Of a stretch of 64,000 nt of DNA, positions 8,512 through 46,802 are shown piece after piece; the first letter of the stretch is position 1; each line of letters begins with the position of its first letter. Made by a program: the position numbers and the translations under genes. The notes beneath the pieces were generated by a model, which did not search any database, was not told the origin of the DNA, and saw nothing but the letters and a program-made list of their open reading frames with translations. The DNA comes from Marinobacterium zhoushanense (GTDB lineage: Bacteria; Pseudomonadota; Gammaproteobacteria; Pseudomonadales; Balneatricaceae): contig NZ_BMIJ01000005.1 in the NCBI RefSeq assembly GCF_014641945.1, forward strand, positions 222,718 to 286,717, given 5' to 3'.

Positions 8512-8958
8512 TCAGTAACTCTTGTAGGGCAGGAACTTGCCCGACATTACCATATTGACCCGGTCGCCCTTGGGATCGGGCTCGCGCTGGATATCCAGCG
8601 AGAAGTCGATGGCGCTCATGATGCCGTCACCGAACTCCTCGTGGATCAGCTCCTTGATCGAGCCGCCGTAGACGCTGACGATCTCGTACAGGCGGTAGAG
8701 CAGGGGGTCGGTGGGGATGCCGCCGGTGCCTTTGGAGGGTACGATCTGCAGCCAGGCCACCGCTTCGTCGGTGAGCTCGAACATCCGACCGACGATCTCC
8801 GCCTGCTCCTTGTTCAGGGTCATCTGGCCGAGACAGGCGGCGGTGGTCCACTCCTTGGAGAGGCCAACTTCCGTGGCCACATCCTTCCATTTGATCCCCT
8901 TGCTGACCTTGGCGGAGAGGATCATCTGAGTCACTTCATCGCGATTGCTGATCATCAT
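8512..8958 (-). CDS. cynS: Cyanase (cyanate hydratase)
   Basis: 148 aa aligning with E. coli CynS over the whole length, including the C-terminal catalytic region (…IHEEFGDGIMSAIDF…); RBS AAGAAGGA 6 nt upstream; lies 31 nt downstream of the kinase gene. Confidence 0.9.
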   Translation of the reverse strand: MMISNRDEVTQMILSAKVSKGIKWKDVATEVGLSKEWTTAACLGQMTLNKEQAEIVGRMFELTDEAVAWLQIVPSKGTGGIPTDPLLYRLYEIVSVYGGSIKELIHEEFGDGIMSAIDFSLDIQREPDPKGDRVNMVMSGKFLPYKSY

Positions 8959-8989: not shown

Positions 8990-10720
8990 TCACATTAGCG
9001 GGTTGGCGAGCAGGTAGATCAGCGCGCAGGCCAGCAGGGCTGACACCCCCTGCCAGAACAACACCGGGTTGCGTTCGATCAGCGGCGGCCGGGTCTTGTT
9101 CAGGTACTCCCGGTTGGGATGGCGCAGATCGTAGATAAACTCCGATAGGTCGTCATAGCGCTTCTCCGGGCTTGGATGGGTCGCCCGTTTCAGTGCTTCG
9201 TCCACCCAGGCCGGTATCTCGCGCTCGTCATCCAGTATCGAGTCATACCTGAGTTTCTGCTGCGCCTTGGCGGTACGGCACTTGGCCACCTGGGTGCCAT
9301 AGGGGAAACGGCCGCTGAGCATCTGGTAACAGATCACGCCGAGCGAGAACTGGTCCGAGCGCTCGCTGCCGGGAAAGCCGAGAAAGTACTCCGGTGCCGT
9401 GAACAGTGCGGTACCGAGTACCTGTTCCTGGCGGCTGACCACTGTCGCTTCGGCGATGCCGGCGACCCGGGTGGCACCGAAATCGATGATCTTCACCGTG
9501 CCGTTGCGGTCGATCATGATGTTGTCCGGACGCAGGTCCTGATGCAGCATCTCCATGCGGTGGAAAGCGCGCAGACCGCGGGCGATCTGTTCGACGATCG
9601 ACCGCACGGTCTCGATATCGGGGCGCGGGTTGTCGATCAACCATTGGCGCAGGGTCTGGCCCTCAATGTACTCCATCGCCGTGTACAGGTAGTGGCGATT
9701 GCGGCCGGGCGACTCCGCCTTCAGCACGTGGGCGCTGTTGATGCGCCGCGCTATCCACTCCTCCAGCAGGAAACGCTCCAGGTAGTCCGGGTCGTCGGCC
9801 AGGTCGATGGCCGGGGTTTTCAGCGCCACCGGGTCGCCACTGGCCATATCCACAGCCAGGAACACATGGCTGCGGCTGGTGGCGTGCAGTTCGCGGACGA
9901 TCTCGTAACCATCGAACTGCATGCGCGGTTCCAGCATCGGCGGCAGCGGCAGCTGCTCGATCTGCAACTGCAGCTCGGCGTGTTCCGTCCCGGGCACCTG
10001 GTCGACACGGACGATCTGCAGGGTCAGGTTGTCACCGCTGCCCCGTTCCAGCGCGTGCTTGGCGATCTGTCGGGCGGCGTTGTCGAGGGATGTCGGGTGC
10101 TCACGCAGGGTGTTGAGCAGAAACTGGGTGTCGCTGTGTTCGTAGATGCCGTCGGTGGCGAGGATAAAGGTATCCCCGGGCTTGACCGACAGGGCCTGGT
10201 AGTCGATCTCGAGCTGATCGTCGATACCGAGCGCCCGGCTCAGGTAGCTCTCCTGCTGGGAGACCCAGAGCCGATGATCCTTGGTCAGCTGTTCCAGCGC
10301 ATGCTCGTGTACACGGTAGATGCGCGAGTCGCCGACATGAAAAATGTGCGCGGTGGCGGCTTTGATCACCATTGCGCTGAGAGTACAGACGTAGCCTTTA
10401 TCCTTATCGTAACGGTAGTCGCTGCGCCGGGTCTGGGAGTGCAGCCAGGAGTTGGTGGCCGCTATCACCCGCTCGGCGGCAGTGCGCACGGTCCAGGCTT
10501 CCGAGGTACAGAAGTAATCGTCGAGAAAGGATTTGACCGCGGCGGCGCTGGCGATCTGGCTGACGCTGCTCGAGCTGATGCCATCCGCTATCGCCAGGGC
10601 TGCGCCCTTGAGACTCAGTTGCGGCTCTTTTGGGATCAGCGCACCGTGAAAATCCTGATTCAGCTCTTTTCGGCCCTTGTCCGAATACTGGCCAACGCTG
10701 AGCTTGAGGTGACTGGTCAT
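8990..10720 (-). CDS. PP2C-type phosphatase / Ser-Thr protein kinase fusion with C-terminal TM anchor
   Basis: N-terminal PP2C motifs (ADGISS, ATDG, SGDN); kinase VALK, HQDLRPDN and DFG motifs; C-terminal hydrophobic helix; co-directional between the FNT gene and cynS. Confidence 0.8.
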   Translation of the reverse strand: MTSHLKLSVGQYSDKGRKELNQDFHGALIPKEPQLSLKGAALAIADGISSSSVSQIASAAAVKSFLDDYFCTSEAWTVRTAAERVIAATNSWLHSQTRRSDYRYDKDKGYVCTLSAMVIKAATAHIFHVGDSRIYRVHEHALEQLTKDHRLWVSQQESYLSRALGIDDQLEIDYQALSVKPGDTFILATDGIYEHSDTQFLLNTLREHPTSLDNAARQIAKHALERGSGDNLTLQIVRVDQVPGTEHAELQLQIEQLPLPPMLEPRMQFDGYEIVRELHATSRSHVFLAVDMASGDPVALKTPAIDLADDPDYLERFLLEEWIARRINSAHVLKAESPGRNRHYLYTAMEYIEGQTLRQWLIDNPRPDIETVRSIVEQIARGLRAFHRMEMLHQDLRPDNIMIDRNGTVKIIDFGATRVAGIAEATVVSRQEQVLGTALFTAPEYFLGFPGSERSDQFSLGVICYQMLSGRFPYGTQVAKCRTAKAQQKLRYDSILDDEREIPAWVDEALKRATHPSPEKRYDDLSEFIYDLRHPNREYLNKTRPPLIERNPVLFWQGVSALLACALIYLLANPLM

Positions 10721-10780
10721 ATACTCAGATGCCGAAAAAAGCCCCAGCCACCCGCAGGTGACCAGGGTTTGGAAGGAAGG

Positions 10781-11623
10781 TTATACGGTTGCCGGCTTGG
10801 ACGGAGCGGAGGTCGGAATCTCGCGCTTGGAACCGGTACGCACGTGAGTGGTGTACAGGGTCAGGCCGGTGAACGCCAGGCCGCCGACCAGGTTGCCCAG
10901 AGCGGTCGGGATCTCGTTCCAGATGAAGTAGTCGGCGATGGAGAAGTTACCGCCCATGATCATGCTGAACGGGAACAGGAACATGTTGACCACGGAGTGC
11001 TCGAAGCCCATGAAGAAGAACAGCATGATCGGCATCCACATGGCGATCACCTTGCCGCTGACATGGGTGGAGATCATCGCACCGACTACGCCGAGGGAGA
11101 CCATCCAGTTACACAGCATGCCGCGGATGAAGATGGTGAACCAACCCTCTACGCCATAAGCAGCGTAACCAACCGTACGGGATTCGCCGATCTTGGCGAC
11201 TTTCTCGGCGATGGCGCCGCCGTCGGTGTTGTAACCCATGGTGAAGATGAACGACATCATCACCGCCACGGTGAAGGCTCCGGCGAAGTTACCGACGAAT
11301 ACCAGCCCCCAGTTGCGCAGAATCTGACCCGGGGTGACACCGGGGCGCTTGTCGAGCCAGGCCAGCGGGGTGAGCATAAACACACCGGTCAGCAGGTCGA
11401 AGCCCATCAGGTAAAGCATGCAGAAACCGACCGGGAACAGGATCGCGCCGATCAGGAACACGCCGGTTTGTACTGCGACAGTGACGGCAAACACTGCTGC
11501 CAGAGCCAGGATGGCACCGGCCATATAGCCACGGATCAGGGTGTCGCGGGTGGACATGTAGATCTTGGATTCACCGGCATCCACCATCTTGGTTACAAAT
11601 TCTGCGGGAATTAAGTAAGCCAT
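10781..11623 (-). CDS. Formate/nitrite transporter (FNT) family channel, NirC/FocA-like
   Basis: 280 aa, 6 TM segments, FNT signature regions; RBS GAGG upstream. Confidence 0.85.
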   Translation of the reverse strand: MAYLIPAEFVTKMVDAGESKIYMSTRDTLIRGYMAGAILALAAVFAVTVAVQTGVFLIGAILFPVGFCMLYLMGFDLLTGVFMLTPLAWLDKRPGVTPGQILRNWGLVFVGNFAGAFTVAVMMSFIFTMGYNTDGGAIAEKVAKIGESRTVGYAAYGVEGWFTIFIRGMLCNWMVSLGVVGAMISTHVSGKVIAMWMPIMLFFFMGFEHSVVNMFLFPFSMIMGGNFSIADYFIWNEIPTALGNLVGGLAFTGLTLYTTHVRTGSKREIPTSAPSKPATV

Positions 11624-11691
11624 ATTTTTGCCTCGTTCGACGTTAAGGGATCACACACAAAGGGTTCTAACCGACTGAGAGCAACAAAAAA

Positions 11692-11741
11692 ATGGCGTCC
11701 ACACATGCCCCGCCTTTTGCAGGTGCAGTGATGGACGCCAT
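11692..11741 (-). terminator. Leader hairpin with T-tract (candidate attenuator/terminator) upstream of the FNT operon
   Basis: Perfect 10-bp inverted repeat ATGGCGTCCA…TGGACGCCAT with a ~30-nt loop; on the minus strand it is followed by TTTTTTT. It lies ~60 nt upstream of the FNT start codon and ~230 nt downstream of the preceding gene. Confidence 0.45.
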
Positions 11742-11969
11742 TATCCAAAATTCTCAGCTTGTCAGATTTGAGCCAGCTTCAGCTCAAATACTGAATCGGA
11801 TATAGCAGTCAGCGTGCCAAAACCTGTTTTTTGTGAAAATCCCAAATAAAGTCAAAGTGTTACATTATCATTCTGGTTTTGTTGTCAGTCTGTGCCTAGA
11901 TCAAAAATGGTGCGCAGCCGGTCAGGGCTGCGCAGTTAAGGTTCATTTTATATGGTTATTAAGCGGGCG

Positions 11970-14537
11970 TTACGGCTGGGGCAGGGCGGTTTTGAGGTCA
12001 ACGCCAGGGCCGTGCGCCAGGCGGATAGGTGCTGACATCAATCGCCGCTGCAGCGCAGCCGCCAGCAACCCCAGCGCGATGCCACCGCCGATCGCCAGGC
12101 CGTCGATCAGCGGCGAGTGCCCCTCCAGCCCCAGCATCGGCATCAGCACCTCGGGTACCAGGCGGTGCAACAGATAGATCGCGAAGGCCGCCTGCGCCAG
12201 CCGCATCAGCGGTCGCAGGCTCCAGTCGGGCAGCGGAATGCTCGGTACCAGACAGAGCAGCGCGAGTATGCCGAGCAGGCTCATGTACTTGATCCAGCCG
12301 CCATACCAGTTGCCGCCCAGATATGCGGCCAGCGGCATGATTGCGCAGCCGAGGACGATCACCAGCCAACGCTGGCGGCGCGTCTGCGCCGCACTAATGC
12401 ACCAGCCGAGGGCGAACAGGTAGAGTACCCAGGGCACGGTGAACAGCGCCCGTCCGTTCATCGGCCAGAGCTGCGGAATAGTGATCCGCAGTAGTAGTGC
12501 CAGTGCCAGCAGTCCGAGGCCGAAGGTGAAGGGGGACAGCTTGGCCAGTTGTCGGCGCAGCGGCGGTATCAGGAAGGGCAGGACCACCAGCAGCGTGATC
12601 TGCACATAGGCTTCCACGAACCAGTACAGGAACGGCAGCATCTCATGGGTCGAGGGCTTGGTCAGCGCGAAGTTTCCCATCAGTAGCGCCGATACCCAGG
12701 GGACCTCGCCCCAGGCCAGGCTATAGCCTGCCAGCACGATGTAATAGGGAATGAGTACACCGAGCAGCGGGGCAAAATAGGTCCCCCAGTTGCCGGCGCA
12801 GAGCGCCTTCCAGCGGAACGATGAGACGCTCATCCCCATCAGCATCACCATCGCCGCCGCGCCGCCATATACCGGCCAGTGGGTCTGGTGTGTGACGACC
12901 ACCGCCAGGATTGCCAGTACTCGCGTCACCAGATCGGTAGGCAAGCGGTTGCGCTGACCGGGGCGGGCGTTCTCCAGTTCGGCGATCGGCATCCGTTCCC
13001 AGCCCGTCGGTACGCCGCCGAGCCGTTCCTCCAGGGCCAGAGTCAGCTCCACATGGCACAGGGAGTCTCCGCCGAGGCTGGAAAAGCTGTCGTCGGGACG
13101 CACGGCACGCGGTGCAAAGCTGGCGCGAAAGGCGGTCAGTACACCGCCGCTGGCTGTTTTCTGTCCCTGTTGTGCGCGCAGTGCCGGATAATCGATCTTG
13201 CCGTTGGCGCGCCGGGGCAGTGCGCGGAGCGGATGAACACGCACATGTTGGGCGCCGATTCCGGCCAGTTGCGCTGCCTTAGCTTGGACCTCCTCCGCTG
13301 CCGGGGCCGCACCCGCCATGCCGATATGGATCTGCCGGTCGTCCCCCCAGACCGCGACCTCCGGGGCGAAGTGGGCCAGGGCGCGCTCCAACGCGTCATG
13401 ACCGATGCGCAGGCCCGCGATCTTGGACATGCGCGACAGGCGGCCGGTGATACGGTAGATCCCGGCGCGATCGCGCCGGGCCAGGTCGCCGGTAGCCAGT
13501 TCATCGAGTTCAGCGCCATGGGCCAACTCCCGGTATCCCTCGGCATAGCCCATCATCACATTGGGCCCGCGGTAGATCAGTTCGCCCTCTGCTTCCGCGG
13601 TTTTAATCTCGGTTCCCTGTGCGTCACGCAGAGCCAGCGCGCCACCGGGGATGGCGATGCCGATCGCGTCGGGCTTATCCAATGCCATTTCCGGGGGCAG
13701 CCAGGCGATACGCGCGGTGGCCTCGGTCTGACCATACATGACCACGAAGCGCCCCTCATGACGCGCCATCAGCTTGGCCCAGTGCACCACCTTGGCCGGC
13801 TCCATGGCACCGCCGGCCACGGTCATGAAACGCAGGCTGGCAGGCAGATGATCGGCCAGGCCTGCGCTTTCCAGCAGGGTGAAGTGGTGTGGTACGCCCG
13901 CCAGATTGGTGACGCCACTGCGCGCCAGGGCCTGGTTGAATCCGGCGCTGAGCACCGACTCCCCGTGCAGCCAGAGCGATGCGCCCTGGAGCAGATGAGA
14001 GTGCAGCACCGACAGGCCATAGGAGTAGTGCAGCGGCAGTATCAGCGCGGCGCGGTCATCCGCCTGGATATCGAGGTACTCGGCGATAGATCCGGCATTG
14101 GCCTCCAGCGCCTGACGCGAGAGTCGTACGCCACGCCCCTGGCCGGTACTGCCGGAGGTCTGCAGCAGTAGCGCCAGCTCAGGGTGAGGCTCGGCGGCTT
14201 GCCAGTCGTGCCGCTCCGGCTCCCAGCGACCGTTGCGACGGTAGAAGCTCAGGGCTGGACGAAAGCGTTGGCTGAGCGAGCGCATCGTATCCGGGGTATC
14301 GACCGGCACCGGCATCACGGCATGGCCTGCGGCCAGGGTGCCGACATAGGCGGCAATTGCCTGAGGGTCGGAGGCCGCCTCGATCGCGATCAACTGCGGG
14401 GTATCGTATTGGTCGAGGGAAGCCGCAAAGCGGGCAGCTTGTTCGGCCAGCTCGGCATAGCTGAGCAGGATACCGCTGGCATCCAGTAAACAGGGTTGAG
14501 CCCCGAGAGCTCGGAAACGATCCAGGTCGAACAGCAT
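11970..14537 (-). CDS. Tri-domain protein: AMP-dependent adenylation domain + carrier-protein (phosphopantetheine) domain + C-terminal integral-membrane acyltransferase (Acyltransferase_3/OafA-like)
   Basis: Adenylation motifs (TSGSTG, YGQTE, GELIYRGPNVMMGY, RITGRLSRMSKIAG, NGKIDY), a carrier-protein serine motif (LGGDSL), then ~330 aa with ~10 TM helices opening with an AT3-like R-x-D-x-x-R…H signature. Confidence 0.7.
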   Translation of the reverse strand: MLFDLDRFRALGAQPCLLDASGILLSYAELAEQAARFAASLDQYDTPQLIAIEAASDPQAIAAYVGTLAAGHAVMPVPVDTPDTMRSLSQRFRPALSFYRRNGRWEPERHDWQAAEPHPELALLLQTSGSTGQGRGVRLSRQALEANAGSIAEYLDIQADDRAALILPLHYSYGLSVLHSHLLQGASLWLHGESVLSAGFNQALARSGVTNLAGVPHHFTLLESAGLADHLPASLRFMTVAGGAMEPAKVVHWAKLMARHEGRFVVMYGQTEATARIAWLPPEMALDKPDAIGIAIPGGALALRDAQGTEIKTAEAEGELIYRGPNVMMGYAEGYRELAHGAELDELATGDLARRDRAGIYRITGRLSRMSKIAGLRIGHDALERALAHFAPEVAVWGDDRQIHIGMAGAAPAAEEVQAKAAQLAGIGAQHVRVHPLRALPRRANGKIDYPALRAQQGQKTASGGVLTAFRASFAPRAVRPDDSFSSLGGDSLCHVELTLALEERLGGVPTGWERMPIAELENARPGQRNRLPTDLVTRVLAILAVVVTHQTHWPVYGGAAAMVMLMGMSVSSFRWKALCAGNWGTYFAPLLGVLIPYYIVLAGYSLAWGEVPWVSALLMGNFALTKPSTHEMLPFLYWFVEAYVQITLLVVLPFLIPPLRRQLAKLSPFTFGLGLLALALLLRITIPQLWPMNGRALFTVPWVLYLFALGWCISAAQTRRQRWLVIVLGCAIMPLAAYLGGNWYGGWIKYMSLLGILALLCLVPSIPLPDWSLRPLMRLAQAAFAIYLLHRLVPEVLMPMLGLEGHSPLIDGLAIGGGIALGLLAAALQRRLMSAPIRLAHGPGVDLKTALPQP

Positions 14538-14711
14538 GGTGGATGTACTACAAAAAATGGGTGATTAGAGGTAGATGACAATATTAAGACAAATGAGAAT
14601 TAATCGTGAATAGAAATTTTCAACTTACCCACCGTGCAAGTTGAAAACACTTGGTGTGCACCAAGATGGCGCGCGGTCCTTGTCGATGGCCGGAAATGAA
14701 GCGCAGCTCGA

Positions 14712-16028
14712 CTAGTGCGGCAAGCCGTTGCTCTTGCCCTTCAGCTGCTCGATGTCGGCGATCAGCTTCTGCGCGACCGCTGCCAGCGAGCGGTTTTGCG
14801 CCATTGAGGTTTGCTGCAGCAGCCGGTAGGCCTGCTCTTCGGTCAGCCCGCGGAACTGCATCAGCAGCCCCTTGGCACGTTCCAGCGTCTTGCGATCCGA
14901 CAGCGCCTGTCGGGCGGCCGTGAGTTCGTCGTGCATCTGTTTCAGCCCCTCAGCCTGTTGCCTGACCAGGCCGTAGAGCGAGTGCACCCAGTCGCTGCTG
15001 GTGGCGCCCGAGCTGCCAGCTTCCGTCGGCGCCGGGGCCTGTTCCGGCGCGAGCAGCATGGTCAGCGGCGAGGCACCGGGCTCATGCAGGGAGGCGATCA
15101 GCTCCAGGCTGTCGTGATGTTTTTTCAGCTCCTTGTTCGCCTCGCGCACGCGCTGCTGACTCAATTGCAGCAGGGCATCGGCCAGTTGCCGCTCCAGTTG
15201 TTGCATCCTGTCGATCCGCCGGGTGGCCGCGTCATACCAGACCTCGCTGATCTCGGACGGCAGTCCGGTACCGGGTTGGACACGGGCGATCAGCAGACGC
15301 AAGCGTAGAAACTCCAAGGTCTCTTCGTGGTTTTCCAGTTCACGCCAACCGTCTATTGGAGCGGCTTGCGCAAACTCCTCGAAGGTGTGGAAGCTTTGCT
15401 GCTGGCTGTCGACCAGGTCAGACAACCGGTGCAGCAGCGCTTGATCGAACTCACCCGCGGCGAAGCCGATCACCGCCCAGGCCCGCTCCTGTCCTGCGTA
15501 CTCCTTGCCCTGCATGAAATTGAACATGGCCACCAGCGCGCGGGTGATCTCGGGATCGTCGGAGATGTCGGCGGCTTCGAAGATCACCGACAGCAGGGCG
15601 GTTATCAGGCGATTGAAGGCTTGGGTACTCTCGGTGGCAGTCAGCGCCCGTTGGCCGATCTGCTCACGCAGGGCTTGAAGGCCGTCCAATCCATGCAGCG
15701 CATAGGCGATATTGTTGAACAGGCGTGCACTGCCGACCCGGGTCCAGCTTTCGATATCCAGTTGCTCAAGTCGGCACCTGAAGCCTTGTTCGGCGTGCAG
15801 AGCCGTTGGGATCTGCTGCAGGCGCTGGCGAGCGAAACGCACGCCTTTAGAGGCAAGAAACACGTTGGATAACCCGCGCTCGCGCTGCAGCTCATGGATC
15901 AGGTTGCTGACCTGGGTCACCAGTTCGCAACTGGCCATCAACTGGCGCAGCAGGGCGATCTCCGAGCGCTTGGAGGCGAGGAAGAAGGTTTCGGTTGCCA
16001 GGGCGTTGCCGGTCATCGACTGATCCAT
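14712..16028 (-). CDS. NasR-like nitrate/nitrite-sensing antitermination regulator (NIT domain + C-terminal ANTAR domain)
   Basis: 438 aa; C-terminal ANTAR-like helix region (…LERAKGLLMQFRGLTEEQAYRLLQQTSMAQNRSLAAVAQKLI); N-terminal region matches the NIT sensor domain of NasR. Confidence 0.75.
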   Translation of the reverse strand: MDQSMTGNALATETFFLASKRSEIALLRQLMASCELVTQVSNLIHELQRERGLSNVFLASKGVRFARQRLQQIPTALHAEQGFRCRLEQLDIESWTRVGSARLFNNIAYALHGLDGLQALREQIGQRALTATESTQAFNRLITALLSVIFEAADISDDPEITRALVAMFNFMQGKEYAGQERAWAVIGFAAGEFDQALLHRLSDLVDSQQQSFHTFEEFAQAAPIDGWRELENHEETLEFLRLRLLIARVQPGTGLPSEISEVWYDAATRRIDRMQQLERQLADALLQLSQQRVREANKELKKHHDSLELIASLHEPGASPLTMLLAPEQAPAPTEAGSSGATSSDWVHSLYGLVRQQAEGLKQMHDELTAARQALSDRKTLERAKGLLMQFRGLTEEQAYRLLQQTSMAQNRSLAAVAQKLIADIEQLKGKSNGLPH

Positions 16029-25647: not shown

Positions 25648-27399
25648 CTATTTCAACCAGAACGCGATCAGCGTGAACAGCGCGATCATGAACCAGACCA
25701 GCGACATCAACTGCCAGAACAGCAGCGCGTTGGGGTGCTTCTGCTCCGCCTCGCGCGGAACCAGGAACTCCGGGTTGGGCTGGGTCAGGTCCTGCATCAT
25801 CCGGTCGATGCAGTCATAGCGCTGGCTGGGGTCGATGGCCAGCGCCTTCTCCAGCGCGCGGTCGAACCAGACCGGGATGATCGGGTTGTGGCGGTCGGCC
25901 GGGATATAGGCGAGCTTCTGCAGCTGCTGCGGCTTGTCGCAGTTCTCCAGCCCGTTGCCGTAGGGCAGGTGGTGGGTGAACAGCTCGTAGGTGATCGCGG
26001 CCAGTGAGAACATATCGCCGCGGATACCGGTATTCTGGCCCAGACGGAACACCGGGTCGGAGTAGTTCAGCGTGCCCAGCACCCGGTCGCGCTTGAGCGG
26101 GACGAAGATCTCGTTGATCCCGGCCACGAACACCGAGCCGAAATCGACGATTACCGCGCTGTTGTCGGGGCGGACCATGATATTGCTCGGCTTCAGGTCC
26201 TGGTGCAGCGTCTCACGCTGGTGGAACGCCTTCAGGCCATCGGCGATCTGCTTGATCAGCTCGATCGCCAGCGCCGGTTTCGGTATCGGGTTCTGTTTCA
26301 TCCAGCGGTCCAGTGATACCCCCTCCACCGGTTCCATCAGGTAGTAGAGGAAGGTCTTCGGGCGGTGGGCGATATGGATACGCACCACGTGATCGTTGCT
26401 GATGCGGCTACCGACCCACTCCTCCATGATGAAGCGTTCGATATAGGCGGCGTCATCCTCGAAGTTGCGCGACGGCGTCTTCATCACCCAGCGCTCGCCG
26501 CTCTCGATCTCCTGTACCTGGTACAGCTGGCTGCGGCTGCTGGCGTACAGCTCCTCTTCGATCAGGTAGCCGTCGATCTTCATCCCCGGTTCCAGCTCCG
26601 GCGGGAAGGGCAGCGCGGTGAGCTGTTCGGTGAGCTGGTCCAGTGAGGCGTCGTGCAGTTGATCGACGCGGACCAACTGACAGCTCAGGTTATCCCGGCT
26701 ACCGGCCCGGTAGGCGGCGTTGACCAGTGCCTCGCAACAGCTCTTCAGCTCGCCGCTGCTGCTGGCCAGGCGCAGCAGCGTTTCCGGATCCAGCGAGTCA
26801 TGCACGCCATCGGTGGTGAGCAGAAACAGGTCGCCCGGTTCGATCTCCAGCGGCCGGTAGTCGATCTCCAGGTGGGTATCCATGCCCATGGCGCGGGACA
26901 GGCAGCCCTCACGCTTGTTGAGCTGGGTGACATGATCCTCGGTCAGCTGGTCGAGACGACCGTCCCGAATCAGGTAGATACGGCTATCGCCGATATGGAA
27001 CAGGTGCGCGGTGCGCGACTTGATCACCAGCAGCGACAGCGTACAGACGTAGCCGCGGGTGCTGGAGAGGTACTCATGGCTGCGTGAGTAGAGGGTGCGG
27101 TTGATCGAGGTGAGCACCTTCTGCGCGGACTTGCCCACGGTCCAGATATCGGGGGTGTCGAAATAGTCGCTGAGAAACTCGCGCACACAGATTTCCGCCG
27201 CCTCGCCACCCGCTTCGGCGGTGCTGACGCCATCGGCGATCACCGCCACCGCGCCCTTGGTGGTCAGCAGGTTGCCCTCGGGCTGAACGAAGCCGAGGCA
27301 GTCCTCGTTTCGCTCCTTGCGCCCCTTGTCGCTGCACTGTCCGACGGACAGCTGGATCTCATCCCGTAGATACATCGCCTGCAGGTTCAGGTTGCTCAT
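25648..27399 (-). CDS. Second PP2C-phosphatase / Ser-Thr kinase fusion with C-terminal TM anchor (paralog of 8990..10720)
   Basis: PP2C motifs (ADGVS, TTDG, SRDN); kinase VVMK, HQDLKPSN, DFG; C-terminal hydrophobic helix; 80 nt downstream of narK on the same strand. Confidence 0.8.
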   Translation of the reverse strand: MSNLNLQAMYLRDEIQLSVGQCSDKGRKERNEDCLGFVQPEGNLLTTKGAVAVIADGVSTAEAGGEAAEICVREFLSDYFDTPDIWTVGKSAQKVLTSINRTLYSRSHEYLSSTRGYVCTLSLLVIKSRTAHLFHIGDSRIYLIRDGRLDQLTEDHVTQLNKREGCLSRAMGMDTHLEIDYRPLEIEPGDLFLLTTDGVHDSLDPETLLRLASSSGELKSCCEALVNAAYRAGSRDNLSCQLVRVDQLHDASLDQLTEQLTALPFPPELEPGMKIDGYLIEEELYASSRSQLYQVQEIESGERWVMKTPSRNFEDDAAYIERFIMEEWVGSRISNDHVVRIHIAHRPKTFLYYLMEPVEGVSLDRWMKQNPIPKPALAIELIKQIADGLKAFHQRETLHQDLKPSNIMVRPDNSAVIVDFGSVFVAGINEIFVPLKRDRVLGTLNYSDPVFRLGQNTGIRGDMFSLAAITYELFTHHLPYGNGLENCDKPQQLQKLAYIPADRHNPIIPVWFDRALEKALAIDPSQRYDCIDRMMQDLTQPNPEFLVPREAEQKHPNALLFWQLMSLVWFMIALFTLIAFWLK

Positions 27400-27479
27400 C
27401 CGGCCATCCTCCTATTCTCCCCAAACACGACCGGGTGACACCGTTACCGATGCCACCCGGACCCTGCCTGTGTTGAGAC

Positions 27480-28952
27480 CTATTCCACGCTGATCAGCTC
27501 GACCGTACCGTCCGGCAGCACCTCGGCCATCTGGCCGCTGGGCTCGTCCATGAACTGCACCAGCAGGAACACCAGGCCCGCGGAAGCACCGATCACCATG
27601 AAGAAGGTGGAGTAGTCGACGAAGCTCAACACGGTCAGGTAGCACACCGCACCGACATTGCCGTAAGCCCCGGCCATACCGGCAATCTGCCCGGTCATGC
27701 GGCGCTTGATCAGCGGCACCACGGCGAATACCGCACCCTCACCGGCTTGGACGAAGAAGGAGCAGGCCATGGTGGCGACTACTGCCGCGGGGATCCACCA
27801 GCCGCCGTCGATCCGGCTCAGCACGAAGTAGCCTACAGCCAGACCCAGGATCAGTACGCTGAGGGTCTTGCGACGACCGATACGGTCGCTCAGGTGACCG
27901 CCGGTGGGACGGGCGACCAGGTTCATGAAGGCGAAGCCGGAGGCGAGCAGACCCGCCTTGACCGGATCCAGACCCTCGAAGGTCTCCAGGAAGAACAGCG
28001 GCAGCATGGAAACCACCGCCAGCTCGGAGCCGAAGGTAACGAAGTAGGCCACGTCGAGTACCGCCACCTGCTTGAACTTGTAGCGCTGGATCTCCGGCAC
28101 ACCCTCTTTCAGGTGCTCCTCGTTGACGTGGTAGATCGCCCGCAGCTGGAACAGGAACAGCCCGACCAACACGGCATAGATTGCCTTGGTGCCGAACTCA
28201 TCGAGCAGGCCCAGGTTGGTCGGCGACAGTTTCCAGGTCAGCACCGCCAGCGCGGCGTACATCGGCAGGTTCATCAGGATGTAGAAGACGAAGTCGCCCT
28301 TGCTGGTCACCTCCAGGCCGCCATGTTTCTTCGGCTTGAAGTAGGTGGAGCCCTTCGGGGTGTTGCGTGCCACGCGGTAGAACACGAAGCCGTACAGGAT
28401 CGCCATTACACCGGCAGTGGCCAGTGCGTAACGCCAGCCGTTGTCACCGCCGTAGAGCAGCGCGAGGGTGGGCAGGGTCATGGCGCCGGCGGCGGAACCG
28501 AAGTTACCCCAGCCGCCGTATACCCCCTCGGCCACACCGACCTGCTTGGCCGGGAACCACTCGCCGACCAAGCGGATACCGATCACGAACCCGGCGCCGA
28601 TGAAGCCGCTCAGGAAACGCATGATCGCCAGCTGCTCATAGGTCTGCGCCGCCGCAAAACCGAGGCAGATAAAGCCGCCGATCACCAGCAGCATGCTGTA
28701 CACCACCCGCGGGCCGTACTTATCCACCAGCGTACCGATGACGATACGCGCCGGGATCGTTAGCGCCACGTTAAGAATCAACAGCGCCTTGATCTCGGGG
28801 CCGCTCAGATCGAACGCCTCCTTGATATACGCCATCATCGGCGCATGGCTGAACCACACCACAAAGGTGAGGAAAAACGCGAACCAGGTAACGTGGAGGG
28901 TCTTGATCTTGGGATCGCCAAAATCGAGCAACCTCAGATTGTTGGTAGACAT
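27480..28952 (-). CDS. narK: NarK-type MFS nitrate/nitrite transporter
   Basis: 490 aa, 12 TM segments, nitrate/nitrite-porter signature regions; RBS AGGAG. Confidence 0.85.
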
Positions 28953-29116
28953 TTGACTGCTCCTGAACTGTTGGCAGCTTTAAAAAACGGGTCGAGTCAT
29001 GAGTGACACAGCGCCGATGCAAAGACTCCGTCGCCACGGCAGGATCCAGTCAGGTGTGTTCCGGGCTCATGGAGTATGCGTTGAGGCCAAAATAGGCCCT
29101 TCGGGGTAGGCGAATG

Positions 29117-29130
29117 TTGATGCAGGTCAA
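29117..29130. promoter_or_regulatory. Candidate FNR box (TTGAT-N4-GTCAA) upstream of narK
   Basis: ~170 nt upstream of the narK start codon; a degenerate copy of the GGTA-cac-TTAGTGGTA motif lies ~40 nt further upstream (29166-29188). Confidence 0.35.
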
Positions 29131-29292
29131 CTGGGATTTAGGGTGTTTGCGGAGTGAAATGGGCGTCTACCACTTATGAGGTATGGGGTTGGTGTGTGTT
29201 TAATTATTTGATTTTAAATTGGTAATAGGTTGATTGGTGATAAGGGGAACGTGGATAAGTTAGAGGTTGAGGAATAGGGGGTATCTGGTGGG

Positions 29293-29763
29293 GTGAGCGC
29301 GACGGTGGGCCAATTGAGTGCCAGAGTTGCATGCTTAAGTAGACTGGAGAAAGCGGAGGTGCTGTACCAGACTGTTGTAGATCACGCGCAAACGCGCAGT
29401 AGACGTGGTTGGATAGATAAATTCGGCGTTATGACCATGAAACCATCCTGTCCAATTTGCCATAAAAACTTCGGTTTATTCACCGGCCCGCAGTTAGAGT
29501 CTTGGTATCGCAGTCCGCTGACGCACTGCCGATGCCCTTTCTGCCAGGCTCCTCTGCAAATTGAGCGGAGCCAGCGTTTTACCTTCTTTGTCTGGCGACT
29601 GATAGCGTTTCTAAGCCTTGGAGTCATAGGTGCTAAATGGATGCTTTGGAAATACTTTTCATACGAGACTGCATTAGCCTTATTCGGACTGGTGACCGTA
29701 CTGATACTTGGATTCTTCGCTATACGCTTTTCACAGGGGATTAGGTACGTTCCACGGCTTTAG
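29293..29763 (+). CDS. Hypothetical zinc-ribbon membrane protein in a low-GC islet (true start possibly ATG 29425)
   Basis: CPICH…CRCPFC Cys pairs followed by two hydrophobic helices; AT-rich codon usage unlike its neighbours. Confidence 0.35.
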   Translation: MSATVGQLSARVACLSRLEKAEVLYQTVVDHAQTRSRRGWIDKFGVMTMKPSCPICHKNFGLFTGPQLESWYRSPLTHCRCPFCQAPLQIERSQRFTFFVWRLIAFLSLGVIGAKWMLWKYFSYETALALFGLVTVLILGFFAIRFSQGIRYVPRL

Positions 29764-39471: not shown

Positions 39472-40131
39472 TTATCCCAGCCCCTCCTGCACCGCCCAGA
39501 CCGCCACCTCGACTCGCGACTTCAACCCCAGCTTCTTCAGCAGGTGTTTCACGTGCACCTTCACCGTACCCTCGGTGATGCTCAGTTTGCGGGCGATGAT
39601 CTTGTTCGACATGCCGCCGGCGATCAGCTTGATGATCTGCTTCTCGCGCGGGGTCAGGGTGTCGATATCCGGGCCCTTGCGGCTACGGTTGTTCTGCAGT
39701 GCCTGGGCCAGCAGGGTGGTGAGACGGTCGCTGATCACCATTTTGCCGAGCGCGGCCTGGTTCAGGTTGGCGAGCAGATCTTCCGGCTCCATATCCTTGA
39801 GCAGGTAGCCGTCGGCACCGGCCTTCAGCGCGGCGACCACATCCTCTTCGTTGTCGGACACGGTGAACACCACCACCCGCGATCCGACACCGGCTTCACG
39901 CAGCATCTTCAGGCACTCGATGCCGTTGATCTCCGGCATGTTCAGGTCCAGCAGGATCAGGTCCGGCTCCAGAGCGTCGGCCTTGGCGACCCCCTCCTCG
40001 GCGCTACTGGCCTCACCGACCACCTCCAGTTCGTCGTCAAGGGCGATCAGCTGCTTGACCCCGGTGCGCAGCAGGGGATGGTCGTCGATCAGCAGGATGG
40101 AGGCGGGGGCGGTGTTGCTCATCTCGGTCAT
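39472..40131 (-). CDS. narL: Nitrate/nitrite response regulator NarL
   Basis: Near-collinear match to E. coli NarL ([18 protein letters not shown]…[16 protein letters not shown]…SRVEVAVW). Confidence 0.9.
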
Positions 40132-40162
40132 GGGGCTGCTCGCTTCTTGGTTTGCAACAAAG

Positions 40163-41983
40163 TTAAGACTGCTTGGGTTTAAATGTCATCAAAACACAGG
40201 TACCGCTGGGCTCACGGTTATCCACACTCAGATCGCCGCTCAGGGTATGGGTACGGTCGCGCATAATCAGCAGGCCGTAGTGACCCTGGTTCTCCAGCGA
40301 GGGCGGCAGACCGACGCCGTTATCCTCCACCCGCACCTCTACCCGTTCGCCGGACTGAGTAACCTGAACCGTTACCTCGCTGGCCTGGCTGTGCTTGACC
40401 ACGTTGGCCAGGGCCTCGCGCACCAGTTGCAGCACGTGGATCTCCTCGTTGGCGGTCAGGCTCTGATGGTGCAGGCTGTATTTCAGCGGGATGTCGAAAC
40501 CGAGGCGGTCGGAGAACTCCTTGACCGTGGACTCCAGCGCCGGTTGCAGGCCGGGTTGGTCCAGGGTCAGGCGGAAGGTGGTGAGCAGCTCGCGCAACTG
40601 GCGGTAGGCGTTGTTCAGCCCCTCCTTGAGCTCGGCGACCACATCGTCAATCTGCTCTTCGTCACGTTTCTGTTTGCGCAGGATCTGCAGGCGACCCACC
40701 TGCATCTTCAGGTAGGAGAGCGACTGTGCCAGGGAGTCGTGCAGTTCGCGGGCGATCACAGCGCGTTCCTCCATCAGCGACATGTGCTGCTCCTGGCTGG
40801 CCTTCAACTCCAGCGACAGCACGATGGCCAGGTTTTCCACCAGTGTGCGGAGCAACGCTGTCTGCTCCTGACCCAAGGGTTGCGTGGGCAGGAAGTTGAC
40901 TTTGAACTCGCCGAAATAGGCTTCCCGGGTTTGGATCGGCAGTGTGATCGAGTCGTGTAGACGGTTATCCGGCTCCGGCACTATGCAGTCGTTGCAGTCG
41001 GAGTTTTTGCAGTCGGCCGGCCGCTCCAGCAGTTGGGTAGTCAACTGACGATAGCTCAGGCGGTGGTGCGGATCGCACAGCGTGACCTCGATCGGCCCGA
41101 CGGCCAGAACATCCTCCAGCTCCTTCATGATCGGCATCAGGCGGCGGCAGATATCCTCGTTGCGGTTGAAACGTCGGGTGGCGTTGTAGAGCAGTTGCAG
41201 ACTCTTGTTGGATTCGCGCAGCTCGGCGGTTTTTCTCTGCACCCGGTTTTCCAGGTCGGCGTAGATCTTCGACAACTCCTCGGCCATATGGTTGAAGGTG
41301 GTGCCCAGCAGGCCCAGTTCGTCGTCGCTACGGTAGTGCACACGGGTGTCGAGCTTACCCTGGCCGGCATCGCGGGCCACGTTGAGCAGCTGGGCCAGGG
41401 GCTCGACCACGTTGGACTTGATGTCGTACATGGCGATGAAGATGATCATCACGGTCATGAACAGGCTGATCCCCTGGATCAGGCTGAGCAGCTTGATCTT
41501 CGATTCGGTGCTCTCCTCAAGCAGATGCACCATCTGGTCGATGCGGGGGACGAAATTCTCCAGTTGGCGCAGATAGGCCGAGTGGTCGGGGCTGTCGGTG
41601 AGGATCGCCGCCTTCAGCGCGGGCTGGAAGTTGTCGCGCCATTCGTCGACCAGCGTGGTGTAGGCCAGTCGCAACTGTTGCTGGTCATCCTTGGGCAGCA
41701 CATTGGTCAGGATCGGGTCGTTGATACGGCGGTCGAACTCGCCAATAGAGGTGAGCACCTTGTCGCGGCTGGTCTCGCTGCCCTCGCTGGCGTGCTGCTG
41801 GGTCTCGGCGATGATGCGGTAGGACATCATGCGCAGCGAGCCGGCCAGGTTGATTCCGGCGGCATCGCCCTGAGTGCTTTCCGCCACGATGACCGAGCTG
41901 ATCATACTGATCAGCGCCATCAGGCTGATGGCGAACATCGCCGTGCCCAGTCGGGTAATGATCGATTGCCTGAGGATCTTCAT
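40163..41983 (-). CDS. narX: Nitrate/nitrite sensor histidine kinase NarX
   Basis: Two TM segments flanking a periplasmic P-box-like region; HAMP; H-box ([11 protein letters not shown]) and HATPase domain; directly upstream of narL. Confidence 0.9.
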
Positions 41984-42107
41984 CGTTGCACTCCGTCGAG
42001 CCGCGCGGGGTTACTCACAAAGAATCGCGTAACGGCTAGCGTTTTTTCCACACCTTGCGTCAGACGTGGAAAATATAAGTTAAAACAGTCTGTTACAAAG
42101 AAAAGAA

Positions 42108-42130
42108 GTGGTACCACCTTAGTGGTATGG
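42108..42130. promoter_or_regulatory. Conserved promoter motif GTGGTACCACCTTAGTGGTATGG (candidate NarL site), ~35 nt upstream of an FNR box
   Basis: 18/20 identical to the motif upstream of narG (46748-46767); contains the palindrome GTGGTACCAC and TACCAC-type heptamers. Confidence 0.45.
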
Positions 42131-42164
42131 GCTGAAATGGTTAACTTTTTCAGCCAGTTATACG

Positions 42165-42178
42165 TTGATGCGCGTCAA
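42165..42178. promoter_or_regulatory. Candidate FNR box (TTGAT-N4-GTCAA) upstream of narK1
   Basis: ~62 nt upstream of the narK1 start. Confidence 0.45.
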
Positions 42179-42239
42179 TATCCGGGGATCGGTCCGGGTT
42201 TAGGTTTGGCTCAAATCGTCAGACCCGAATCGTATCACG

Positions 42240-43526
42240 ATGACCCAGACTACTCAGAAACAGATCTCCGCATTGGTCATGAGCACCCTGGTGTTCGCGG
42301 CCTGCTTTGCGACCTGGACGCTGATCTCGGTTATCGGTCTGCAAATAAAACATGAATTGCAGCTCAGTGAAACCGAGTTTGGTGTACTGGTGGCGACGCC
42401 GATCCTCAGCGGTGCCTTGGCGCGCCTTCCACTGGGTTTGCTGGCCGAGCGGCTGGGCGGTCATGCGTTGCTGGCCGTGCTAGTGCTGCTGGTCAGCGTG
42501 CCGCTCTACCTGTTTTCCCAGGCGCACAGCTACTGGCAGTATCTGGCACTGGGGTTATGCATCGGTCTGGTGGGTGGCAGTTTCGCCATCGGTATCCACT
42601 ATGTTTCCTCCTGGGCCTCGCGCGACAACCAGGGGCTGGCGATGGGGATCTTCGGTGCCGGCAACCTGGGCGCGGCGCTGACCAACCTGATCGCGCCGCT
42701 GATCATCATCGCCTACGGCTGGCGCATGGCCCCAATCGCCTACGCTTTCGTGCTGGTGCTGCTGGCGCTGCTGTTCTGGCTGCTGACCCAGGATGATCCG
42801 ATGCATCAGTCCCGCAGTCGCCGCGCGGAGCCCTCACTGACCGAGATGCTGATGCCGTTACTGGACCCACGGGTGTGGCGCTTCGGTCTGTACTACTTCT
42901 TCGTGTTCGGCGGCTACGTGGCGCTGGCGCTCTGGCTGCCTGACTACTACGTCCACCATTACGGTCTGGACCTGAAAAACGCCTCTTTCCTGACCCTGCT
43001 GTTTACCGTACCCGGCGCCCTGACCCGGGTGATCGGCGGCTGGTGCGCCGACCGCCTTGGTGCGCGGCGGGTCAACTGGAGCGTGTTCTGGGTCTGCCTG
43101 GTCTGTCTTTTCTTCCTCTCCTACCCACCCACCACCATGACCATTCATGGCATCGACGGCGACATCACGTTCCTGCTCGAGATGCCGGTCTGGCTGTTTA
43201 CTGTGCTGATCATGGTGATGGGTGTGGCGATGGGGTTCGGAAAAGCCGGGGTGTTCCGCACCGTCTACGACTACTACCCGGATCGCATGGGTACGGTCGG
43301 CGGCGCTGTGGGGTTGCTCGGTGCGATCGGCGGATTCGTACTGCCGATCAGTTTTGGTCTGGTAACGGACCTGTTCGGCGTACGCAGCTCCTGTTTCATG
43401 CTGCTCTACGGCCTGTTGGCGCTGTGCATGATCACCATGTACTACGGCATCTCGGTCCAGGAGAAGCAGAACCGGTTGCAGGAGGCGATACGCACCAACT
43501 TTTTGAAGGAGAACCTGGATGCCTGA
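42240..43526 (+). CDS. narK: NarK1-type MFS nitrate/nitrite transporter
   Basis: 428 aa, 12 TM MFS with NarK signature. Confidence 0.85.
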   Translation: MTQTTQKQISALVMSTLVFAACFATWTLISVIGLQIKHELQLSETEFGVLVATPILSGALARLPLGLLAERLGGHALLAVLVLLVSVPLYLFSQAHSYWQYLALGLCIGLVGGSFAIGIHYVSSWASRDNQGLAMGIFGAGNLGAALTNLIAPLIIIAYGWRMAPIAYAFVLVLLALLFWLLTQDDPMHQSRSRRAEPSLTEMLMPLLDPRVWRFGLYYFFVFGGYVALALWLPDYYVHHYGLDLKNASFLTLLFTVPGALTRVIGGWCADRLGARRVNWSVFWVCLVCLFFLSYPPTTMTIHGIDGDITFLLEMPVWLFTVLIMVMGVAMGFGKAGVFRTVYDYYPDRMGTVGGAVGLLGAIGGFVLPISFGLVTDLFGVRSSCFMLLYGLLALCMITMYYGISVQEKQNRLQEAIRTNFLKENLDA

Positions 43527-43640
43527 CCAGAGCGGCAACCGTCCGCTTCCCCGACCGGCCGATACGCGGCTTCGGGGCGGGTTCGACGTCAAGATCAGTC
43601 GGGCGTCAGGCGCCCGCTGCTTCAGCCTGGAGTGTGAGTC

Positions 43641-45245
43641 ATGTCCGATATAGTGAATTGGGATGTCGAGAACACCAAGTTCTGGGAGGACGAAGGCAAA
43701 AAAGTGGCGAACCGCAACCTGTGGATCTCGATCCCCAGCCTGTTGTGCGGCTTCGCTGTCTGGTTGTACTGGGGCATCATCACCGTGCAGATGTTGAACC
43801 TGGGCTTCCCCTTCGCCAAAGCAGAACTCTTTACCCTGGCCGGCATCGCCGGTTTGACGGGGGCAACGCTGCGTATTCCGAGCAGCTTTTTTATCCGCAT
43901 TGCCGGCGGACGCAATACCATCTTCTTCACCACGGCGCTGCTGATGGTGCCCGCCATCGGCACCGGTATGGCGCTGCAGGACAAGGACACGCCGTTGTGG
44001 ATCTTCCAGCTGCTGGCGTTCCTGTCCGGTATCGGCGGCGGTAACTTCGCCTCCTCCATGTCCAACATCAGCTTCTTCTTCCCGAAACGCCAGCAGGGGC
44101 TGGCGCTGGGTCTGAACGCGGGGCTGGGCAACGCCGGGGTGACCACCATGCAGATCCTGGTGCCGCTGGTGATGACCTTCGGTATCTTCGGCGGCACGCC
44201 GATGATCCTGGAGAACACCTCCGGCACGCTGATCGGCAAGATTCCGGCAGGCTCCGAAACCTATATCCACAACGCCGGTTACGTCTGGCTGCTGATCCTG
44301 GTGCCGCTGGCGGTGATGAGCTGGTTCGGCATGAACAACATCAAGACCGACGCCGTGTCGCCCGATGTGGGCAGTGCCACCGGCGCCATGGGCAAGGTGG
44401 CGGGGCTGCTGCTGATCGGCTTCTGCACCGCCGCCGCCGGTCTCTACATCATCCTGCCGGCGCCGACCGGCCTGGGCGCGCCGGACTGGGCCAAGTGGCC
44501 GGTGATCGCCGGTATCCTGTTCATGACCGTGGTGCTGATGAAGATGGTGCCGGGCGATATCAAGCCCAACCTGCAGCGCCAGTTCAAGATCTTCAGCAAC
44601 AAACACACCTGGATCATGAGCGTGATCTACACCATGACCTTCGGTAGCTTCATCGGCTACTCCGCCGGTTTCGCACTGGCGATCAAGGTGGTGTTCGGCT
44701 ATCAGCACCTGATGGTCGATGGCGTGCTGACCCACAACACGGTTAACGCCGCCGGTCCGTCGGCACTGATGTACGCCTGGATGGGGCCGTTCATCGGCGC
44801 CCTGATTCGCCCGGTAGGTGGTTGGATCGCCGATAAGGTGGGCGGTGCCAAGGTGACCCAGATCGTCGCCGTCATCATGATCGCGAGCGCCCTGGGGGTG
44901 GCCTACTTCCTCAAGCAGGCCTATCAGTCCGCCACGCCGGAGGAGTTCTTCCTGCCCTTCCTGATCCTGTTCCTGGTGCTGTTCGCCGCCACCGGTATCG
45001 GTAACGGCTCCACCTTCCGCACCATCGCCATGGTGTTCGACAAGGAGCAGGCCGGTCCTGCTCTGGGCTGGACCTCGGCGGTGGCCGCCTACGGCGCCTT
45101 CGTCATCCCACAGGTGTTCGGCGAGCAGATCAAGCTGGCGACACCAGAGAACGCCCTGTACGGCTTTGCCGTCTTCTATCTGGTCTGCCTGGTGCTGAAC
45201 TGGTGGTACTACCTGGGGCCGAAGGCGGAGTACAAGAATCCGTAA
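43641..45245 (+). CDS. narK: NarK2-type MFS nitrate/nitrite transporter (long form)
   Basis: 534 aa MFS, second NarK paralog in a narK1-narK2 tandem as in Pseudomonas. Confidence 0.85.
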   Translation: MSDIVNWDVENTKFWEDEGKKVANRNLWISIPSLLCGFAVWLYWGIITVQMLNLGFPFAKAELFTLAGIAGLTGATLRIPSSFFIRIAGGRNTIFFTTALLMVPAIGTGMALQDKDTPLWIFQLLAFLSGIGGGNFASSMSNISFFFPKRQQGLALGLNAGLGNAGVTTMQILVPLVMTFGIFGGTPMILENTSGTLIGKIPAGSETYIHNAGYVWLLILVPLAVMSWFGMNNIKTDAVSPDVGSATGAMGKVAGLLLIGFCTAAAGLYIILPAPTGLGAPDWAKWPVIAGILFMTVVLMKMVPGDIKPNLQRQFKIFSNKHTWIMSVIYTMTFGSFIGYSAGFALAIKVVFGYQHLMVDGVLTHNTVNAAGPSALMYAWMGPFIGALIRPVGGWIADKVGGAKVTQIVAVIMIASALGVAYFLKQAYQSATPEEFFLPFLILFLVLFAATGIGNGSTFRTIAMVFDKEQAGPALGWTSAVAAYGAFVIPQVFGEQIKLATPENALYGFAVFYLVCLVLNWWYYLGPKAEYKNP

Positions 45246-45274
45246 TCGATGTGACTCGAGTTACTGAGCAGATT

Positions 45275-45299
45275 GCGGGGCCAGACGCCCCGCTTTTTT
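45275..45299 (+). terminator. Rho-independent terminator after narK2
   Basis: GCGGGGC-cagac-GCCCCGC hairpin followed by TTTTTT. Confidence 0.6.
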
Positions 45300-45371
45300 G
45301 TACAGGGATGTACTTATCCCGCGAGCGCATGGATGCGCAAGAGCGGGATTTGCAGGATGCGTAAGATGTAG

Positions 45372-46767: not shown

Positions 46768-46802
46768 TGCCATTTTGCACGCCTAGCGCCCCTTTTCCAG
46801 CG

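Follow-up and report, generated by a model that had tools for sequence, protein, structure and literature searches.

The stretch analysed here, 64,000 nt of contig NZ_BMIJ01000005.1 of Marinobacterium zhoushanense (hereafter the window), carries on its minus strand a three-gene operon encoding an FNT-family anion channel, a fusion of a PP2C phosphatase and a Ser/Thr kinase, and the cyanase CynS. The operon is preceded by a leader that contains an intrinsic terminator, and a gene encoding a NasR-like protein with NIT and ANTAR domains is located further upstream (Table 1). A first-pass annotation of this sequence had described a 10-bp inverted repeat at 11692-11741, about 60 nt ahead of the FNT start; the repeat is read directly on the minus strand, and 62 nt separate its U-run from the start codon. 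The run of seven T reported to follow it includes the final base of the arm, with six T beyond the stem, and the upstream hairpin (TTTGAGC...GCTCAAA) is present but occupies 11788-11767, one base off the reported 11767-11789. The 438-aa NIT and ANTAR protein said to lie about 3 kb away was found at 2.9 kb, with both domains confirmed by Pfam. Overlooked in that annotation were a sigma-54-type promoter, a second hairpin overlapping the terminator, and a separate terminator belonging to the upstream AMP-binding gene.

Table 1. Features of the FNT-kinase-cynS locus (positions refer to the window)
Feature	Position	Strand	Details and basis
Sigma-54-type promoter	11819-11804	minus	TGGCACgctgaCTGCT / TGGCACGCTGACTGCT; TGGCAC-N5-CTGCT; -24 GG, -12 GC
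Hairpin P1, first ANTAR-binding stem-loop (predicted)	11788-11767	minus	UUUGAGCU-[GAAGCU]-GGCUCAAA; minimum free energy (MFE) fold
Hairpin P2, second ANTAR-binding stem-loop (predicted)	11746-11733	minus	GGAU-[AAUGGC]-GUCC; A1, G4; sequence
Leader intrinsic terminator	11741-11686	minus	Stem 11741-11692 plus U-run; sequence and folding
Terminator 5' arm	11741-11732	minus	ATGGCGTCCA; direct sequence reading
Terminator 3' arm	11701-11692	minus	TGGACGCCAT; direct sequence reading
TTTTTTT run	11692-11686	minus	7 T with the last base of the arm; 6 T past the stem
Terminator-like hairpin ending the AMP-binding gene transcript	11934-11911	minus	Terminator scan and sequence
FNT start codon ATG	11623	minus	62 nt beyond the U-run
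FNT-family anion channel, operon gene 1	10781-11623	minus	Pfam Form_Nir_trans, E = 6e-65
Terminator-like GC-rich hairpin and U-run between FNT and kinase genes	10742-10767	minus	Terminator scan
PP2C phosphatase and Ser/Thr kinase fusion, operon gene 2	8990-10720	minus	Pfam PP2C_2, Pkinase
cynS (cyanase), operon gene 3	8512-8958	minus	Pfam Cyanate_lyase, CYNS_N
AMP-binding and acyltransferase-3 fusion, 855 aa	11970-14537	minus	Pfam; not part of the switch
nasR-like gene, NIT and ANTAR, 438-aa open reading frame (ORF)	14712-16028	minus	Pfam NIT, E = 3.4e-52 (178.6 bits); ANTAR, E = 6e-19 (68 bits)

The stems of P1 (8 bp) and P2 (4 bp) are both longer than the minimum of at least 3 bp each in the definition of the ANTAR dual-hairpin motif (PMC3369931, PMC7496416). 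The P2 loop, AAUGGC, carries the A1 and G4 of the ANTAR hexaloop motif, and the P1 loop, GAAGCU, carries G4 with a G rather than an A at position 1. In the Klebsiella oxytoca nasF leader the dual hairpin consists of P1 GCGCGCC-AAUGGC-GGCGCG and P2 GGAU-AAAGGC-GUCC (Ramesh et al. 2012, Fig. S1), and P2 of the window (GGAUAAUGGCGUCC) is identical to P2 of nasF (GGAUAAAGGCGUCC) at 13/14 bases, differing in a single base of the loop. Because the loop and 3' strand of P2 double as the 5' arm of the terminator, P2 and the terminator are mutually exclusive. The two hairpins are joined by an ACAA-containing linker (CUGACAAGCU; columns ~64-72 of alignment A3, ~11763-11755 of the window), a motif that recurs in many FNT-type leaders and is absent from the published K. 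oxytoca sequence.

The 187-nt leader folded to -67.4 kcal/mol, as compared with -48.3 +/- 3.7 kcal/mol for shuffled sequences (z = -5.2; 0/200 shuffles as good), with the terminator by itself contributing a structure of -34.7 kcal/mol and P2 by itself one of -4.4 kcal/mol. When the nascent RNA ended before the 3' arm of the terminator, its MFE structure consisted of P1 and P2. Once the 3' arm was included, the terminator form reached -49.2 kcal/mol versus -32.5 kcal/mol for the form in which P2 was forced, a difference of about 17 kcal/mol. These modelled energies fit a switch that would be expected to terminate by default and to require a protein to keep P2 closed. An ANTAR dual hairpin competing with the terminator, which the first-pass annotation had suggested looking for in the folded leader, was found.

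In an alignment of 49 leaders that was fitted to the P1/P2 model, such that the counts for these two hairpins lean towards it, compensatory changes occurred at 7/7 modelled pairs of P1 with 92% of cells paired, and P2 was 100% paired with a closing pair alternating between C-G and U-G. The covariation score of P1 was not matched by any of 500 shuffles, and slid controls were only 26-50% paired. The 13 pairs of the terminator, which were not modelled, were 91% paired in the same alignment and showed compensatory changes at 7 positions (7/13).

The sigma-54 pattern had two exact matches in the window versus 0.25 expected. One of these is the promoter of the leader; the other (51787-51802) is embedded within a narH-like gene and was treated as a chance occurrence. 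The GG-N10-GC of the leader promoter was retained in 7/7 aligned leaders as well as in many metagenome leaders, and the promoter segment that forms part of the Rfam P11/NalA model aligned onto the same 11819-11804 positions. From the sequence of this promoter we infer a transcription start near 11793, 3-5 nt ahead of P1. The hairpin at the end of the AMP-binding gene shields the FNT promoter from transcripts that enter from upstream.

A covariance model made from ten FNT leaders only (R1) had a single match in the window, scoring 96 bits, with the runner-up at 9.6 bits (E ~1). Among 79 NasR loci, R1 matched just 3' of nasR and on the same strand in 38 (E <= 3e-4), of which 36 were adjacent to nasR and 2 lay beyond the inserted AMP-binding gene, and weaker matches occurred at the equivalent position in about a dozen further loci. 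The genes downstream of the leader in 32 of the 38 matched loci encode an NrtA-type binding protein, NirB/NirD and a reductase of ~885 aa; the remaining six are the FNT loci of the relatives of the window (L001-L006). Additional matches to the leader model, on the strand opposite nasR, were observed in three loci (L008 9549-9638, L009 9545-9653 and L015 5076-5187, all minus). Those of L008 and L009 are positioned just 5' of nasR and face a divergent gene for the ~885-aa reductase, suggesting that canonical regulons may hold more than one leader, and that of L015 lies at the downstream end of the reductase gene.

At gathering thresholds, Rfam had no match in the leader. A relaxed scan recovered RF00625 (P11) at 22.7 bits (E = 0.0049 in a 401-nt search), far from the gathering score of 70 and not qualifying the leader as a curated member; the match took in the promoter as well as the core formed by P2 and the terminator. 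The RNA catalogued as P11 is NalA, through which NasT controls the Pseudomonas aeruginosa nirBD operon from its leader. A general report of ANTAR motifs ahead of "nitrate and nitrite transporters" dates from 2012. A further P2-like sequence in the window (GGATAACGGCGTCG, 40325-40312, minus), one mismatch from the P2 consensus, was rejected as a coding coincidence: it belongs to the coding sequence of the narX-like kinase, where it specifies the DNGVG ATP-binding motif, and has neither a U-run nor a P1. The same sequence (40312-40325) would be a false positive for any ANTAR scan by motif alone.

The NasR of the window matched K. oxytoca NasR, for which a crystal structure exists (4AKK), over its full length and in both domains (E = 2.7e-47), and is 88% identical to its relative in M. 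ramblicola; a look-up of its exact sequence returned no record. The ORF is listed from 16028 (MDQSM...), and the M. ramblicola orthologue is annotated with 434 aa, starting from the Met equivalent to residue 5, so that by comparison translation probably begins at Met5 (16016). Residues of the nitrate pocket and of the RNA-binding surface have been assigned in K. oxytoca (PMC7496416, PMC9581486). The pocket residues R50, E175/R176 and R236 were invariant across 77 aligned NasRs (R51, E181/R182 and R244 in the window), and the RNA-binding residues R340, K341 and K347 are kept (R379, K380 and K386), with K345 replaced by arginine. The equivalent of R100 is an arginine in 61/63 NasRs linked to nasF-type operons. 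Every NasR of the FNT-adjacent clade (L001-L006, L012, L088-L091, L105 and L112) has N, S, T or D there, the residue of the window being N106 (codon near 15711-15713). This position could be a specificity determinant or a mere clade marker. In a neighbour-joining tree, the FNT-adjacent NasRs were placed outside the clade formed by the Klebsiella and nasF-linked NasRs.

The other NasR type also occurs in the genus. M. sediminicola (CP092123.1; L160 8475-12858, also L161) carries a canonical arrangement of nasR, leader, nirB and nirD, with molybdenum-cofactor genes, a NasA-type reductase and nrtABC nearby. Its NasR is of the nasF class, 42% identical to that of the window, and is encoded directly 5' of nirBD, the intergenic space holding a related leader. 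Marinobacterium therefore holds both NasR classes.

The order nasR, AMP-binding gene, leader, FNT, kinase and cynS is common to the window, M. ramblicola and M. lacunae. The AMP-binding gene, present in the window and in two relatives (L001, L004), is absent from the four others (L002, L003, L005, L006), namely Marinobacterium sp. YM272, a Marinobacterium metagenome-assembled genome (MAG), another MAG and Oceanobacter mangrovi. In these, 300-400 bp separate the end of nasR from the FNT start, and the leader, which nasR abuts, lies in this gap. Since nasR adjoins the leader in the four relatives without the AMP-binding gene, the separation seen in the window is secondary, with the 2.6-kb gene representing a lineage-specific insertion into an ancestral order, as judged from gene order, in which nasR stood directly before its target leader.

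The cyanase scored above both NCBIfam cut-offs (NF002773, 211.8 bits with a cut-off of 150; TIGR00673, 165.1 bits with a cut-off of 113.3). The kinase fusion is named "bifunctional protein-serine/threonine kinase/phosphatase" by NCBI. The FNT protein scored below the NCBIfam equivalog cut-offs for both NirC (52.3 bits; cut-off 293) and FocA (127.7 bits; 290.1), with only the general Pfam FNT family recognized; its closest solved relative is LCIA of the NAR1 family, and homologues 75-98% identical to it occur in nas-type clusters. We examined 80 metagenome loci (L080-L159) picked by similarity of their FNT (75-91% identity). The PP2C/kinase gene followed FNT in 62 of them, cynS was adjacent to FNT (before, between or after) in 29, and nirBD was contiguous with FNT in 18. 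cynS and nirBD occurred together in 1/80 and are thus nearly mutually exclusive within the flanks. A leader preceded FNT in 24/80 loci, with NasR encoded in the available flank for 7 of these, and FNT genes internal to a nirBD operon had no leader of their own. The possibility that cynS-linked FNTs form their own clade was rejected, as neither a cynS nor a nirB context set the FNT sequences apart.

Judging from these gene neighbourhoods, FNT with PP2C/kinase, with or without cynS, is a module that nas clusters elsewhere commonly contain. Read most economically, the FNT is probably an assimilatory nitrite channel or importer, and cynS often accompanies the module as an accessory gene. NitM, an assimilatory FNT of cyanobacteria, imports nitrite specifically, and cyanate does not inhibit it. 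The terminator-like hairpin between the FNT and kinase genes has an equivalent in the same intergenic place in 5/6 relatives (L001, L002, L004, L005, L006) and may be an internal partial terminator or attenuator setting the ratio of FNT to kinase/cynS expression.

The interpretation that we favor, with a probability of roughly 80%, is that the operon is controlled by NasR-mediated, nitrate/nitrite-dependent antitermination of a leader initiated by sigma-54. Computation supports it at several levels: the architecture of the RNA, the exclusivity of P2 and the terminator, their conservation and covariation, the kinship with nasR-linked leaders, the linkage to nasR, and the intactness of NasR. The first-pass annotation had singled out the FNT/cynS operon as the best candidate target of the ANTAR regulator, and the near identity of P2 with that of nasF, the family of nasR-adjacent leaders and the four relatives with nasR immediately upstream all point the same way. 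Its further proposal, of a cyanate/nitrite channel under nitrate/nitrite antitermination, is supported as regards the control, but nothing shows that the channel carries cyanate.

According to this model, transcription would begin from the sigma-54-type promoter, with nitrogen limitation as the presumed driver by analogy with nasF, and the nascent RNA is predicted to fold into P1 and P2, each presenting a hexaloop. Without inducer, the far more stable terminator would capture the loop and 3' strand of P2 once its own 3' arm has been made, and the polymerase would halt at the U-run, yielding a leader RNA of ~105 nt. When nitrate or nitrite occupies the NIT domain, NasR would, as in K. oxytoca, bind both loops and keep P2 closed; the terminator would then be blocked, allowing read-through into FNT, the kinase/phosphatase and cynS, and nitrite would presumably enter through the FNT.

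Several observations weigh against this interpretation. The P1 loop of the window is GAAGCU closed by a U-G pair, as compared with the consensus AAYGGC closed by C:G, and the A at loop position 1 that is here a G is functionally important in K. oxytoca; among natural leaders, P1 has G at this position in 4/40 and A in 34/40, and G4 is present in 42/43. No clear site for a sigma-54 activator (NtrC-type, a TGCACC-N5-GGTGCA-like repeat) was seen at 11820-11960, a region read by eye with no formal scan. The nasR gene of the window is 2.9 kb from the leader, and the gene that intervenes is unrelated and ends in a terminator of its own. Finally, the P2 motif is common to the NasT-dependent NalA/P11 leaders, and the RNA alone cannot name the ANTAR protein that acts on it.

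This last point opens the way to an alternative in which the switch is genuine but is operated by another ANTAR regulator encoded outside the window, either a NasS/NasT pair or a second NasR of the nasF class, with the neighbouring NasR being irrelevant or a co-regulator. The presence of at least two NasR classes in the genus, including the M. sediminicola protein with its related leader, would supply a candidate, and for 17 of the 24 FNT leaders from metagenomes the available flank does not encode a NasR. We nevertheless consider this unlikely, given that nasR directly adjoins the leader in four relatives and is divergent from it in seven metagenome loci, that no second ANTAR protein is encoded in the 64 kb of the window, and that the FNT-linked NasRs form clades of their own travelling with the FNT operon.

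Other alternatives assign a role to cyanate. In the most far-reaching of these, which seems to us decidedly improbable, the NasR clade lacking the R100 equivalent has, in this Marinobacterium lineage, been retuned or narrowed to cyanate or to nitrite only, and its main or sole target is a stand-alone scavenging operon in which FNT imports both cyanate and nitrite, the PP2C/kinase gates the channel by phosphorylation, and CynS releases ammonium. If true, it would be the first ANTAR riboregulatory system linked to cyanate, and an example in bacteria of nitrogen-oxyanion channels gated by a kinase. A related and very doubtful explanation keeps the switch as described, with a NIT domain that senses another anion (cyanate, or nitrite only) and an FNT that imports cyanate for CynS, the whole constituting a cyanate-utilisation operon. 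The inclusion of cynS in the operon, the near exclusion of cynS and nirBD from one another beside FNT-kinase, the failure of the FNT to reach either equivalog cut-off, and the loss of the R100-equivalent arginine throughout the FNT-adjacent clade can all be read this way. They are set against the invariance of R50, R176 and R236 in the pocket, the lack of any split of FNT sequences by cynS or nirB context, the nitrite specificity of NitM, and the occurrence of NasRs of the window-type clade beside FNT-kinase-nirBD-nasA (L089-L091). That the hairpin is merely a constitutive terminator or insulator between transcription units, without regulated read-through, fits its strength and its intergenic position downstream of another gene but is scarcely credible, as the upstream gene has its own terminator with the sigma-54-type promoter lying in between, the element with P1 and P2 is conserved in loci that lack the upstream gene and its P1 covaries, and an operon that is highly conserved would be shut off by a constitutive terminator 62 nt ahead of its start codon.

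The antitermination model advanced here closely resembles the NasR/nasF system of K. oxytoca M5al (Chai & Stewart 1998/1999; Ramesh et al. 2012; Goodson et al. 2020), which shares the one-component NIT-ANTAR regulator, the sigma-54-type promoter, and a leader with P1, P2 and an overlapping intrinsic terminator, as well as the G4 of both loops and the A1 of P2. It differs from it in the regulated genes (nasFEDCBA in K. oxytoca; FNT, PP2C/kinase and cynS in the window), in the G that replaces A at position 1 of the P1 loop, in the inserted gene that parts nasR from the leader, and in a NasR that belongs to a separate neighbour-joining clade and is devoid of the R100 equivalent. NalA (RF00625) likewise combines a sigma-54 promoter with dual hexaloop hairpins and a GGAYAAAGGCGUCC/terminator core, and mediates nitrate-responsive antitermination of nitrogen-oxyanion assimilation genes, but it depends on the two-protein NasS/NasT regulator rather than on a NIT-ANTAR fusion and precedes other genes. 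The canonical nasR-nrtABC-nirBD clusters of Nitrincola, Marinospirillum, Vreelandella, Polaromonas, Variovorax and M. sediminicola (L007-L079, L160) have a leader of the family found by the FNT-built model at the same spot after nasR; their first regulated gene is of the NrtA type or nirB, and their NasRs, of the other clade, are 41-48% identical to that of the window.

In cyanobacteria, cynABDS, the ABC transporter for cyanate/nitrite and NitM offer a parallel in which cyanase is genetically tied to nitrite/nitrate uptake and an FNT channel serves assimilatory nitrite. These systems have no PP2C/kinase partner and no control by an RNA antiterminator; cyanobacterial cyanase and nitrate/nitrite assimilation are controlled by DNA-binding transcription factors. 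A literature search returned nothing specific on the FNT-kinase-cynS module, on PA1782 or on Marinobacterium nitrogen genes.

The mechanism and both of its components, NasR and the leader, are of known kinds, and the locus is a further NasR-type switch. The novelty lies in the cargo (FNT, PP2C/kinase and cyanase), in a NasR clade apart from the Klebsiella type, and in a module that is common in marine metagenomes yet unannotated as such. The NasR antitermination regulon, experimentally characterised only for Klebsiella nasFEDCBA, would accordingly extend to a widespread marine module whose genes currently carry only generic annotations. The work also provides a usable RNA model for NasR/NasT-type leaders, which Rfam P11 misses at threshold. 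Cyanase expression is predicted to depend on nitrogen limitation together with nitrate or nitrite, which bears on the use of cyanate by marine heterotrophs, and the pairing of a transporter with a kinase/phosphatase makes it possible to test whether nitrite/nitrate transport is under post-translational control.

The first-pass annotation had also remarked on the lack of nas assimilation genes. This holds for the 64-kb window, in which tblastn with NrtA, NirB, NirD and the ~885-aa assimilatory nitrate reductase from a canonical locus gave no match, but not for the module, as FNT-PP2C/kinase is common in nas clusters elsewhere. The absence of nas genes from the window is not evidence of a regulon without a reductase. 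Among the best 120 of ~8000 NirB homologues, M. sediminicola and Marinobacterium sp. BA1 were represented, and none was assignable to M. ramblicola, M. lacunae or the organism of the window.

A respiratory nitrate cluster occupies 39472-54000 of the window and includes narL (39472-40131, minus), a gene for a narX-like sensor (40163-41983, minus), two genes for NarK-type transporters (42240-45245, plus), narG (47014-50778) and narH (50775-52352). Nitrite from this cluster could serve as inducer or substrate of the NasR-FNT module. A second pairing of a transporter with a PP2C/kinase is found at 25648-29130 (minus), where a gene for a NarK-family MFS transporter (27480-28952) is followed by a kinase paralogue (25648-27399) 41.5% identical to the operon kinase. 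No ANTAR leader was found before this pair (28953-29300); an FNR-box-like sequence (TTGACCTGCATCAA, 29130-29117) lies 5' of it. The recurrence suggests that nitrogen-oxyanion transporters are paired generally with a PP2C/Ser-Thr kinase fusion. Under the improbable cyanate-scavenging reading, this second pair would hint at the same principle of kinase gating.

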